This document shows, in pieces, positions 40,727 to 45,887 of a stretch of 64,000 bases of DNA. Made by a program: the position numbers and the translations under genes. Position 1 is the stretch's first letter. Each line of letters begins with the position of its first letter. The DNA is taken from NCBI GenBank assembly GCA_004022145.1, contig RCNU01000010.1. The stretch is one strand, 5' to 3'. A model generated the notes under the pieces. The model saw only the letters and a list, made by a program, of their open reading frames with translations. It was not told the origin of the DNA and searched no databases. This DNA is from Paecilomyces variotii (taxonomy: Eukaryota).

Positions 40727-41898
40727 ATGGCCGCCAGAAATACCTTGCGACGAGCTCTGCTCTATGGTAAGTACCATCTGCTGAAGAGATCCTCGGGAGC
40801 TTTCCCCGCAACTGCTCTACAGCTTCCTCCGCTTCGAACTAGAGCATGGCCTGTCAAGCAAAGATAACAGAGAGTCCTAGACGCTAATAGCTTCTATAGT
40901 CCCCGGCTCATCACAGCGCTTTCTCGACAAATCACGTAGTCTAAAAGCCGACTGTGTCGCATATGATCTTGAGGACAGCGTCACTCCGCATAAGAAGGCG
41001 GAAGCGCGGAGCTTGGTGCGGAGAGCTCTCGATCAGCCCGCTCCGGCAAACATAAAAGAACGTGCAGTTCGAATCAATTCAGTCGATAGTGGTTTAGCTC
41101 TTGCAGACCTCACAGAAGTGGTGAGATATGCCGTATGCAGTTAAACAACCCGTATGGGTCATCTGGCTAATAATGTTTCGAATCAAACGGCAGCTTCAAT
41201 CACCCAACCTCACCACCCTCGTTATACCGAAAGTAAACTCAGCTTCAGATCTAACATTCGTGACTGACGTGATCACCCACACACTTTCAACATTGCCGCC
41301 AGAACAGCAAAACCCGAACAGACCCCCGATCTCTCTGCTCGCCCTCGTCGAATCCGCCAAGTCCATCACCAATCTCACGCAGATATGTTCTGCCAGCCCG
41401 CTTCTTCAAGGCCTCATCTTCGCCGCCGAAGACTTTGCTCTTGACCTCAGCATCACCCGTACCCCATCATTGACTGAGTTTCTCTTCGCGCGTTCCGCCA
41501 TCGCAACCGCCGCTCGTGCCGCCGAGCTCCCATCCACAATCGATCTTGTATGCACAGCATATAAGTCCAGCGATGGCTCCCCACCAGCAGTCTTGGAAGA
41601 AGAATGCCGTGGCGGCAAACGGCTTGGTTTCAACGGGAAGCAATGCATCCACCCCTCGCAGGTGGAAACAGTGCAGAGGATCTTCAGCCCAGAAACGGAC
41701 GAGGTAGAGTGGGCAGTGCGTGTCGTCATTGCAGATGAAAAAGCCGCGGCAGCAGGGCGCGGGGCCTGGACACTGGACGGCAAGATGATCGATGTCCCCG
41801 TGGCAGAAAAGGCAAAAGCGATCGTTCGGAGAGCCGACGCTTGTGGAATCAACATTGAGGAGATCCGGGAGAAGTGGAAGGGGCAGGAACCAGAGTAG
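40727..41898 (+). CDS. Citrate lyase beta-subunit-like (CitE/HpcH) protein; introns 40767-40899 and 41121-41193
   Basis: [42 protein letters not shown] and [10 protein letters not shown]. Confidence 0.92.
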
Positions 41899-42360
41899 AT
41901 TTGTGTAATGTCTTCAAGCAGAAGACGAAACCAAGAGGCTATAGTAGCTCATATTTATATCGAACCTTTCGATATTTTCACATATACGAGAAAGTACGTA
42001 CAAACGCACAATATTCTGTCTCTGATATTGAAGCATACATATATATCACCTTTATATAGAGTACAATTTCAATCCAAACAAGTCAATTTCCTCGAGTCAA
42101 GACTAGACTCTTGAAGTTACTATCCATCCAACACTGCCCCCTTTCCCTTCGCAGCTGGCTAGAGGTAGGTGTTTACTACATAGACCTAGGCCAGTGATTA
42201 AGTTCCAAAAGCTAGGTAGTTAGTTAACTACTCTTCATCTGGTCCCTCCGTACATACCATACAACCTCCTCCCTCAACGCAACCCACGTGATAACAAAGA
42301 ACACCCCCCTCCCCCCGACACTCCCCCCCAGTCACCAACACTCTATATATACCACAACAA

Positions 42361-42571
42361 AGGTTCACCCCCCAGTCAGGGAGTCCAGATGGTGTAGTGG
42401 TACAAAGCTAGTCCACCTCCATCTAGCTAGAGGTTTTCTGTTCGAACCTCGGAGAAGGCTCCTTGGATTTTCGAAGAAAAACCCTGCCCGCCAAAATAGC
42501 ATAGGCGGGGTTTTCGTAACACCCTCCATCTCTCGTCCTGTGGATGAGTGCCCGGGGGTGTGAGCTTTTTT
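42361..42571 (+). ncRNA. Putative RNA polymerase III-type structured ncRNA (or tRNA-derived SINE) with decayed tRNA-like head
   Basis: TATATA at ~42344, A-box TGGTGTAGTGG (42390-42400), B-box GTTCGAACC (42440-42448) and T6 terminator (42566-42571). It has several stems and 5'/3' terminal pairing but does not fold as a canonical cloverleaf. Confidence 0.65.
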
Positions 42572-42592
42572 GTATACAGTCCTTTGTTGTTG

Positions 42593-42643
<51 letters not shown>

Positions 42644-42644
42644 T
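42593..42644. repeat. (TTAT)13 microsatellite
   Basis: Perfect tetranucleotide repeat just downstream of the T6 run. Confidence 0.95.
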
Positions 42645-43533
42645 TGTTGGTATTGTGTTTGAGATTCTATGCGAAATTGTGAGAAGCCTTGAGCGTTCTG
42701 GATAACGAAGTGGTTGCGTTAAGGATATACTAAGTATTACTTCTTCTGCGAAGGGGTGCAATCGTTAGGAAGCATCTGTTCGAGTATTTTTGTAATTTTA
42801 ATCCAATTCTACTGCGACTTTCGGTTGTGTTTAGTAGGCTGTATTAATGGTTGTTATTTTGTCAATTTGATTTCTATGTACGGCTTCTACGCGAGTAAAT
42901 TATATATCCGAAGAGCCCCAGACCGAAAAGACGAATATTCTATCTGAATCTATAACAGAAATAGATTGTTACCAACCCCTCCTTAACCTTCATCGTCGCC
43001 TTCACTATACTGAGACCTGGATCCGAAAAGATAGAACATCCAAGAGTCATGATGCATATACCCATACGATACATGGCCACTTTATCTGTTAGGATCCTCT
43101 TGCCCAAGAAATCAATAGTGATGACGTAGACCAGCTGCAAGTCCCGAAAGAAGAGGATGGATCTCCCGTTGGAAGGACTGCTGATAGTGTCTCAGGACCC
43201 ATCATAGTGAACAGGATGGTATAAGTAAGGCGCTTAGAACGTCTACACTAAGGGGCAACCGGGCCGAGTTTTCGTTAGTCGACGCTCGTAACGAGTATCC
43301 AAGGGTGTCAGGAAGAGCAAGTCCGAGCCATAGGCGTTCTCAAAACTCCTATGATGTCAATTCACTTCTTTTATGGCGGTCTCTGGCAAACTGAGCAAGC
43401 AATAAAGACGAAAGCAGCAGCGAAATAAATGGGTATCCAGGTCGTCGGCTTTCGTTAAAATGTCAAATCAATTCCGATTGCTTGTTGAGAATCCCCGTGA
43501 GCCGTCGTCTCAGTTTATCAGTCGCTAGCAGGA

Positions 43534-45887
43534 CTATTCGGGCTTCTTAAGCGCGGCGTCCTCACGCTTCAGAAGCTGGACCTTCCCCATCGTTATGATA
43601 GGCGGGTCTCCGTCAGTCTCGGTATCATTCTTGGCACCTTCCTCGATCTCCCTAGCAAGACTCTTATCGTAGCTCGTGGGATCAATTCCCAAGACTCCAC
43701 CGACATATCCACCACGCTCACCGGGAACGCTGAATTCGCGGAAAACATACTTCCATTCGTTGAGCCAAATCTTAACGGCTTTTCCAACCTTATCCTTTCC
43801 ATTCTTCGAATGGTGGCCAGTTCCCGTGATGGCATACAGGACACGGCGGCCCTGTTTGGCGTGCTTGAGGAGGATCTTCTCGAGATACTCGACGGCTTCT
43901 TCGGGATGGAGACCATGCAGATCAACGTACAGCTCCTCAGTGGTGGGGTTAAGACCACTGTTTAGTAGATGTTTATTCCGCTCCTCGTAAAGATGGCGAG
44001 CTGCTTCGCGATGACATTTACGCATTGCCTCATTCTCTGCCTGGCCACGCAATGATAGGGCCTTAGCGGCTCGCGCATCATTACGATTCCAAGCTTGTGC
44101 GGCGCTAGAGGATAGGGTTTAGTGACGACCCATGAAGGAGTATAGGGACCTAGGAGTTGACTAGAGCATACCTTTGCAGAAACTTATTCCTGACGGTTCC
44201 ATGGCGGATGGCATCTGTGCGATATTTGATGTACTGTTGGTTGGCCCTGGCCCCTGTCTCTAGCCAGGGAATGTGCTTAGGGGCAGGTATTGCTTGTGCG
44301 GCCGCACTGTTTTCTCGGCTTTTGGGAGCTTCTTTGCTGTTTTTCGAGGAAGATTTACCCTTCCCAGGGCCAGGAGACGGAGACATGCGGACGACATCTG
44401 CAAGCGAGCTAGGCGTGCTTTCCTTGCTGAGGTTGCTCTCGCGAGTTTGATTTCCTCGTTTCCCTTTCTTTCCAGGATTTTTCGCACTCACCGCGGACAG
44501 GGTAGGGAAAGCATCGGGATCATCAACCGAAGGTGCTGTGGCGTTCACGTTCGAGTCCCTTTGCTGATGTCGACTAGTAGGTCGCGAATGGGGACGAGAG
44601 TTACTCCCATTTCTTCTTCCACCGCCAAATTGCCCTGGATACTTGTGCCCAGGGGGGGTAAGATTATTCGAATACTTGACATATGGGTTCATCCAGTGCT
44701 CTCCAGCGGCCGTCACAGGCTGCAAAGCAGGAAAAGCATCGTAGTTGTTGTCTATCTGGAAGGCCGGTTGTTGGCCTCCAGCTGATTGAGAATTCCCATC
44801 GCTCAAGCTCATGTTGCCGATAAGGGATGAGGGGTCATGTGAGAAAGGGCATCCATCTCCAGCAAGGCAGTTGCCCATCATCCAATACCTGCCCCGGCTG
44901 TTAGCTCTCATGGCTCTCTTGACTCTTCTATCTGTATCCTATTTGTACTTACTTGCAGACATGTGTAGTCAGATCGTGACTGAAACGACAGTCAGCTCGA
45001 AGGCACTGCCCTGTAGATAGCCAATACTTGCACACCACAGGACTTCTAGACTGGCCGGATGGGGTTGACGATCGCATATGCTCTACGCTCATGGACTTGC
45101 CTACCAAAATACGACCTTCCTCCGCTTGTTGGCTGGTGGAGTCAGAGCTCTGCTCCTGAGATAATGAAGCAATAGTGGCACCCAGGTCATAGCTATTGGC
45201 CTCCAGAGCGGCCTCGATCTCGTCGTTCGTTTTCTTGTCTCCCAGAACAGACCTTAATATATCATGAGGGCTCATATCGGGCACGAACTCCGGGGCTGCG
45301 GCGCTCAGCCCACCACCGGTCGAGCTAACTCCACCCACAGAAGACGTTGTACTGGCGGCATCATCCCCCACCAACCACTCGACATTGCTCTCGCTCCCAA
45401 AATCCCCATAGAAATCTGAGATCCCACTCTGGTCGGAGAACTCGTACGCATTCAGATTAGGCGAGTGTGGGATCGGTTGAGCAAGGGCCAGTCTAGGAGA
45501 AGGACGAGGAGAGGTGAAAGGAGAGGCTGTAGTAGAGCGTGGAGCGCGTGGAAAGCCACCGCGCGAAGGCGGGAGCCACGAGGAACTGGACGGGCTGGTG
45601 CCCATGTTTGGCGGCGAGGACAGAGGGGTCGAGGATCGTGCAATCTGCCATGGCGCAGGAGAAGAACGTCGGATGATCGTATGGCGTGCTGGAGGGAGCG
45701 AACCATCGGGCTGGGTGCTGTTTCTATGCCACCAGAGAACATCGAGGACGACATTCTCCAGTGAGCTGCCCGACAGTGACGTGTTTTCACGCAAGAACTC
45801 CTCCAGCTTCTCAACCTGCTCTTCTTCATCGATGTCCTTGTCCTGCAGGATGGGCAGACATTGCTCATAGATATCCTCCGCAACCAT
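43534..45887 (-). CDS. CCCH zinc-finger, DUF1771-like and Smr-domain protein; 2 introns
   Basis: CKYWLSTGQCLRADCRFSH and CKYWMMGNCLAGDGCPFSH fingers, a PAM2-like LSAAAPEFVP, and Smr motifs YVDLHGL and ITGTGHHS. Confidence 0.92.

Follow-up and report, generated by a model that had tools for sequence, protein, structure and literature searches.

Genomic context and promoter layout

The 64-kb stretch of the Paecilomyces variotii contig RCNU01000010.1 (assembly GCA_004022145.1) analysed here, hereafter the window, looks like fungal nuclear DNA. A short element with the layout of an RNA polymerase III (Pol III) gene, which we regard as a candidate member of a small-RNA gene family, lies there between an HpcH/CitE-like gene and a DUF1771-Smr gene that is convergent with it. 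An earlier note on this DNA had pointed out that a TATA box, an A box, a B box and a run of six T residues (T6) lie in order between the two convergent genes and that a (TTAT)13 tract follows beyond the terminator, and had proposed either an orphan Pol III noncoding RNA or a short interspersed element (SINE) derived from a transfer RNA (tRNA). All of these signals are indeed present at the locus, as listed below together with their counterparts in a second copy of the element on a metagenome contig (L001).

ends at 41898, plus strand: HpcH_HpaI / C-C_Bond_Lyase open reading frame (ORF), upstream flank of the element
42344-42351, plus strand: TATA box TATATATA, kept in L001 as ATATATAT
42374, plus strand: predicted start of transcription, at the A in a CA (42373-4) that is conserved; it lies 30 nucleotides (nt) 3' of the initial TATA-box T, and the A box follows after 16 nt
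42390-42400, plus strand: A box TGGTGTAGTGG, counterpart in L001 TGGCACAGTGG
42440-42448, plus strand: B-box core GTTCGAACC, identical in L001, 50 nt from the A box (start to start)
42566-42571, plus strand: T6, a Pol III-type terminator; homology shared with L001 stops 2 nt beyond it
42593-42645, plus strand: (TTAT)13.2 microsatellite, local flank outside the family unit
ends at 43534, minus strand: DUF1771 + Smr ORF, downstream flank of the element

Taken singly, each box is no commoner in the window than expected by chance (the A-box pattern alone has 8 matches against 3.6 expected). A stricter B-box pattern, GTTCGANNCC, has four matches elsewhere in the window and none at the element, whose B box fails it because position 62 is a T, the G53-C61 core being intact. 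The ordered set of TATA box, A box, B box and a run of five or more T residues occurs at one site in the window (with two overlapping TATA starts) and in none of 300 windows generated by a first-order Markov model, A and B boxes alone being found in 3 of the 300. A and B boxes at tRNA-like spacing, followed by a T run, are the marks of a type-2 Pol III unit, and all of them are kept in L001. The A-box consensus is TRGCNNAGTGG, to which the A box of L001 (TGGCACAGTGG) is nearer than that of the window (TGGTGTAGTGG).

The DNA directly 5' of the TATA box has peculiarities of its own. A long C-rich tract, CACCCCCCTCCCCCCGACACTCCCCCCC, occupies window positions 42300-42330, and its counterpart in L001 is shorter. 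An exact 11-nt direct repeat, CCCCCCAGTCA, is found at 42324-42334 and 42368-42378 (44 nt apart), one copy lying 5' of the TATA box and the other across the predicted start; in L001 a 23-nt gap stands in place of the 5' copy, as if the repeat had arisen by a local duplication in the lineage of the window.

A second copy and further variants

A metagenome search with a degenerate pattern for the B-box region yielded one locus, contig L001, whose positions 669-892 align with window positions 42345-42573, that is, from TATA box to terminator, at 90.8% identity (E 5e-85). The flanks of this copy are unrelated to those of the window copy, and no CitE-like coding sequence was found upstream of it in L001 (tblastx). 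When contigs of four public runs were compared with window positions 41800-43300, they broke or diverged at 42345 and at 42571/2. One contig of 233 nt (X13) spans exactly 42344-42572, the element is covered by several contigs carrying differing flanks, and variants of about 85% identity are present in contigs of runs X9 and X15. The upstream flank of the L001 copy has the same 30 letters as a loose end in X9 and X15 contigs. In X9, which is labelled as a single organism, the window-type flank, the L001-type flank and the variants of about 85% identity are found together, and the presence of both flank types there points to paralogues, several copies in one genome being likely.

In total, the public-run contigs hold at least three sequence types of the element, while the 64-kb window contains one copy, with no further copy detected in it by BLASTN (the other matches are of at most 18 nt or have E>0.5). 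By these sequence comparisons, the element is a member of a family and not an orphan; the earlier description of an orphan Pol III noncoding RNA holds as to the Pol III type and the absence of an Rfam family, but has to give way before the second full copy in L001 and the variants of about 85% identity.

Conservation profile and origin of the copies

Identity between the window and L001 changes stepwise along the locus:

42186-42235: 59% identity
42236-42301, plus strand: upstream block common to L001 (586-648), 75% identity
42302-42344: spacer, 38% identity
TATA box to start: 79% identity
42374-42465, plus strand: 5' head with the internal promoter, 89% identity
42466-42565, plus strand: 3' domain, conserved best of all, with identity in 95 of 100 alignment columns (95%)
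downstream of T6: chance level

The local alignment of the block at 42236-42301 scores 42 against a shuffle mean of 16.9 (z 11.2, with 0 of 500 shuffles as high). This block, which holds ATCTGGTC and ACCCACGTGATAACAAAGAA (CACGTG in the window, CACGTC in L001), is probably upstream promoter DNA. The shared homology therefore extends about 110 nt 5' of the TATA box, across an unalignable C-rich spacer, and similarity farther out is at chance level (upstream z 0.7, downstream z -0.8). Identical columns amount to 177 of 192 in the transcribed part versus 97 of 163 upstream (Fisher p 1.6e-13). A TATA box and the DNA 5' of it are out of reach for a transcript made by Pol III; the two copies therefore arose as DNA, and graded conservation that ends at the terminator argues for paralogous small-RNA genes under selection. 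Thus, the sequence pattern fits duplicated genes under selection and not a retroposed SINE.

The target-site duplications that define a SINE were also looked for. No direct repeats flank the window copy, given that all four repeat families within 42150-42760 have a copy inside the element, and none was seen by eye around L001. The tails are not common to the copies either, with (TTAT)13 in the window versus T13 at the same place in L001.

A separate observation is an inverted repeat, ACCACAACAAAGG / CCTTTGTTGTTGT (12 of 13 positions complementary), which brackets the element in the window at 42351-42363, immediately within the TATA-box side, and at 42581-42593, shortly beyond the terminator. 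Its hint of a miniature inverted-repeat transposable element was rejected because the 13-nt repeat is absent from the 3' flank of L001; it is probably a local or chance feature around the window copy.

Predicted fold

Folding of the element is more stable than that of shuffled sequences, none of 200 shuffles equalling it (z -3.3 at 42361-42572, z -3.5 at 42374-42571), and as the minus strand reaches a nearly equal value (z -3.1), the fold gives no strand information. Three hairpins are present in every prediction for both copies:

42387-42424, plus strand: hairpin H2, AGATGG..GTGG / CCAC..CCATCT, stems invariant in L001
42478-42514, plus strand: hairpin H4, AAAACCCTGCC / GGCGGGGTTTT, stem invariant, loop 2 nt shorter in L001
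42519-42561, plus strand: hairpin H5, outer stem ACACCC / GGGTGT, inner stem CTCGTCC (42532-38) / GGATGAG (42542-48)

The differences of L001 in H2, a TGT-to-CAC change and a 1-nt deletion, both fall within internal loops. In a third, more diverged copy, H5 reads CTCCTC / GAGGAG, a change from G.U to C-G with both sides altered, as seen by eye in one loose end (the 30-letter X9 consensus behind 42522). The 5' strand of H4 in another copy, also a 30-letter loose end, has A-to-G, C-to-T and C-to-T changes, which would still pair only given an unchanged 3' strand. For the head, the predictions show an acceptor-like stem, the long H2 hairpin and a variable hairpin at the B box, which meet in a junction.

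Differences between the two copies tend to avoid predicted pairs: in the minimum free energy (MFE) fold of the window copy alone they occur at 5 of 124 paired versus 10 of 73 unpaired positions (p 0.023), and in that of L001 alone at 3 of 128 versus 7 of 64 (p 0.017). For the consensus fold, 3 of 126 paired versus 12 of 66 unpaired columns differ, a count that is circular in that both sequences compared had already served to derive the fold. All three changes that fall within consensus pairs convert U.G to C-G.

Every helix listed in the earlier note can be read in the sequence, but two of them are not kept in L001. In the clamp joining the 5' and 3' ends, which probably lies partly 5' of the start, CCCCC becomes TTCAT and GGGGG becomes GCGGG, and in the other helix GAGGTT/AACCTC becomes GAGGCT/AACCTT, giving a C.A mismatch. 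Since the start is placed at A42374, the 5' strand AGGTTCACCCCC proposed there would lie upstream of the RNA.

Two further observations concern the predicted fold. The window reads T at 42434, 42436 and 42437 (GAGGTTTTCT), where L001 and every covering contig of the four runs read C (GAGGCTCCCT); these T residues, which may be strain-specific C-to-T transitions, turn C-G pairs of the consensus fold into U.G. In addition, CCTCCATCT occurs twice within the RNA, at 42416-42424 (H2) and 42523-42531 (H5), and both occurrences could pair with AGATGG at 42387-92, so that alternative folds are possible.

Transcription

The spacing of start sites in Pol III genes of yeast and S. pombe was used as a guide, and CAGTCAGGG at the predicted start is retained in L001. 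By this reckoning, transcription would begin near A42374 and give an RNA of about 195 nt ending in U residues. In the RNA run X16, a 211-nt contig covers 42388-42571 on the plus strand and continues into A16, although contigs as such cannot reveal transcript starts, strand or level. Contigs of X16 leave 42004-42360 and 42616-42717 uncovered, to which no weight is attached. The 30 nt before 42571 are G+C-rich and without an A-rich poly(A) signal (read by eye), for which reason Pol III termination followed by adenylation fits this 3' end better than a normal poly(A) site. Nuclear surveillance is known to adenylate Pol III transcripts.

The same RNA data touch the neighbouring genes. A CitE-like mRNA contig of X16 ends in a poly(A) run at 41980, the apparent polyadenylation site of that gene about 80 nt 3' of the stop codon. 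On the other side of the element, one X15 contig skips 54 nt (ends TT..TG) of window positions 42787-42842, apparently in the 3' untranslated region of the Smr gene; this is an indel variant or a small intron in a relative.

Searches for known RNA families and coding potential

ARAGORN detected no tRNA gene in the window or in L001. Covariance models of Rfam 15 gave no match at gathering score across the 64-kb window, and at E<=10 only unrelated noise was obtained in sub-searches of 700, 206 and 111 nt on both copies (12-15 bits, compared with gathering scores of 43-90). No match was found among these models to U6, 5S, signal recognition particle (SRP) RNA, RNase P/MRP, vault, Y, 7SK or the Afu_* families, which agrees with the earlier statement that the element bears no signature of U6, 5S, SRP, RNase P or MRP RNA and leaves it without a characterised family. 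The tRNA model (RF00005) had no cmscan match at E<=10, even to the 111-nt head alone. With neither an ARAGORN nor a covariance match to the head by itself, the tRNA-like character reported for it is confined to the two promoter boxes.

A coding reading was rejected because the indels between the copies (1, 1, 1 and 2 nt) break the frame and no ORF begins with ATG. A small nucleolar RNA (snoRNA) was likewise considered and set aside, as C, D, H and ACA boxes were not seen by eye in the 3' domain.

Pattern scans of prokaryote genome contigs and viral contigs gave no match, as expected for a fungal element. The element was not found to be described in the literature searched by terms and by 16-17-nt strings, a search that covered sources other than the Repbase Aspergillus SINE entries. 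The accessible text of PMC5640933 held nothing bearing on it, and the main text of PMC2377427, whose supplement (perhaps listing A. fumigatus RNA sequences) lies outside that search, had no occurrence of the terms.

Proposed function and alternative explanations

It appears somewhat more probable than the contrary that the element is one gene of a small, expressed, lineage-specific family of type-2 Pol III small-RNA genes in a filamentous fungus; the assignment to Pol III, the place of the start, the folded structure and any function are what we infer. In the proposed mechanism, the internal A and B boxes would be bound by transcription factor IIIC (TFIIIC), and TFIIIB would be seated at the TATA box, 30 nt 5' of the start. 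Initiation by Pol III near A42374 and termination in T6 would release an RNA of about 195 nt whose 3' end is rich in U. This RNA would fold into a promoter-box head (H2 plus the acceptor-like stem) followed by a two-hairpin 3' module (H4 and H5). Being the most conserved part, the 3' module is taken as the working part, which might act as a protein-binding small RNA of a lineage-specific ribonucleoprotein (RNP), a scaffold role suggested by analogy. The head would serve chiefly as promoter and perhaps also as a processing or stability signal. We give rather little credence to a more specific version, also drawn by analogy, in which the tRNA-mimicking head of this fungus-specific Pol III family would be both promoter and a handle for RNase P/tRNase Z, cleavage freeing an active two-hairpin RNA.

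To our knowledge, the fungal Pol III transcriptome is held to be small and universal, consisting of tRNAs, 5S, U6, RNase P RNA, SRP RNA and some peculiarities of yeast. A lineage-specific Pol III RNA family that is structured and conserved would be a new player in a mould found in food-fermentation RNA libraries, and would also offer this fungal group a natural Pol III cassette of small size, with promoter and terminator. Even if it were a silent repeat, it would still matter for annotation, as a type that is mislabelled in screens for SINEs and tRNA pseudogenes.

Several points weigh against a functional Pol III gene family. The A box of the window departs from the consensus by a T in place of C, and two outer positions of the B box deviate. 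The head has no unambiguous closing stem, as CAGGGAG (42377-83) has three competing 3' partners. The counts of pair avoidance are modest and their alifold version is circular, and two full-length sequences are too few for a real covariation test, none of the 66 consensus pairs being changed on both sides. As to the paralogues, X9 contains roughly double the contig letters found in the other single-organism runs, and X15 comes from a mixed sample, a metatranscriptome. Relative to the window, the X16 contig shows 3 differing letters and one gap, and its 10 letters ahead of 42388 do not match; a chimera, a sequence from a relative or a 5'-truncated, A-tailed retrocopy could explain this. Finally, a short Pol II transcript would go equally well with the TATA box, the A tail and a conserved upstream block resembling CACGTG.

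The other half of the earlier proposal, a tRNA-derived SINE or a family of retroposed Pol III transcripts that is or was mobile and has no function of its own, seems unlikely. It would account for several copies in different flanks that carry an internal A/B promoter, for the X16 contig that resembles a 5'-truncated copy followed by A16, and for the microsatellite close to the 3' end of the window copy, and a low-copy, tRNA-related element with degenerate boxes and no cloverleaf, AfuSINE2, is reported for A. fumigatus in the accessible part of PMC5063351. However, the homology takes in the TATA box and some 110 nt of upstream DNA, which no Pol III transcript could contain, T6 falls within the unit, the copies share neither a tail nor flanking duplications (L001 being judged by eye), (TTAT)13 being absent from L001, and conservation is graded and not uniform; none of the 8-mers and 9-mers tried occurs in the AfuSINE sequences printed in the accessible part of PMC5063351. 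The branch of the earlier interpretation that invoked a Pol III noncoding RNA is therefore the better of the two; its observations are confirmed, and its interpretation is partly supported.

We consider it improbable, and slightly more so, that the locus is a neutral relic, namely a decayed tRNA gene or fragment that was segmentally duplicated and yields no functional RNA. The lack of fit to any tRNA or Rfam model, the imperfect A box and the T cluster of the window strain at 42434, 42436 and 42437, where the run contigs read C, could all be signs of decay, but decay would hardly leave 89-95% identity in the transcribed part next to 38-75% just upstream and none downstream, with L001 keeping both boxes, the TATA box and the terminator, changes avoiding paired positions and a contig from an RNA library ending at the terminator. 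The possibility of a short, polyadenylated noncoding Pol II transcript with incidental A and B boxes, which is quite improbable, draws on a CA initiator preceded at 30 nt by the TATA box, the conserved upstream block with its E-box-like CACGTG and the A16 tail of the RNA contig. Against it stand the conservation of both Pol III boxes at tRNA-like spacing and a unit ending exactly at T6, the absence of an A-rich signal in the G+C-rich 30 nt before the A tail, and the known adenylation of Pol III transcripts. Covariance models often give poor coverage of fungal RNAs, and a divergent member of a known RNA family could have been missed; yet this is very improbable, because Rfam 15 gave nothing at gathering score and only noise at E<=10, and the size and helices match, by reading, none of U6, 5S, SRP, RNase P/MRP, vault or Y RNA. 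Hardly any weight is given to a solo long terminal repeat (LTR) or another DNA-level repeat with a tRNA-type promoter, similar to the Helenus-type TRIMp3. Such a repeat would explain a shared DNA unit of about 340-390 bp that includes sequence 5' of the start, LTRs of Helenus with tRNA-like boxes do occur in fungi according to the available text of PMC10886601, and one possible boundary of the window copy has a repeat of 4 of 5 bases (ATAGA / ATACA, by eye). Nevertheless, the homology boundaries have no TG...CA ends (by eye, and a weak test as the boundaries are fuzzy), L001 lacks a 5-bp duplication (TCATA versus GGTAA, by eye), conservation is non-uniform, and Helenus is reported in that text only from Pucciniales and a few Agaricomycetes (PMC10886601).

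Comparison with known systems

A Pol III small-RNA gene family of the kind favoured here would have parallels outside the filamentous fungi, in which we know of no described lineage-specific small RNA with a tRNA-type Pol III promoter. The rodent BC1 and 4.5S RNAs and the vault RNAs are about 100-200 nt long, have internal A and B boxes, helpful upstream elements and a T-run terminator, exist in few copies within a single lineage and do not fold as a cloverleaf, all of which resembles the element; it has no sequence or model similarity to them. The leader promoters of yeast RPR1 and SNR52 likewise place A and B boxes in a less conserved 5' part, with the 3' part perhaps being the functional RNA. 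The 3' part of the element, in contrast, is neither RNase P RNA nor a C/D snoRNA (no boxes by eye and no Rfam match), and an RNA contig joins its head and 3' domain.

The TMERs of gammaherpesvirus 68 and the mascRNA of MALAT1 are similar in having a promoter-box head, two hairpins and a T run within about 200 nt in total. The element differs from them in that its head is no recognisable tRNA, it is a cellular fungal gene, and H4, at about 13 bp, is too short for a usual Dicer substrate. If the cleaved-head version were true, the TMER / MALAT1-mascRNA logic would have been invented in a cellular setting by filamentous fungi, and moulds would have a new stable RNP RNA.

Among fungal repeats, Helenus/TRIMp3 LTRs share with the element a repeated DNA-level unit with A and B boxes, but the element has no LTR ends, no 5-bp duplications and a graded conservation, and Helenus is reported only from Basidiomycota in the available text of PMC10886601. 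AfuSINE2 of A. fumigatus, as described in the accessible part of PMC5063351, is a low-copy element of 140-493 bp with A and B boxes and no cloverleaf, some copies being transcribed, and is defined by target-site duplications of 4-14 bp and by tails. The element has no such duplications, its homology extends 5' of the promoter and no tried 8-mer or 9-mer is common to both; as far as that text goes, AfuSINE2 is nevertheless the nearest described fungal object, for both are low in copy number and carry A and B boxes without a cloverleaf (PMC5063351).

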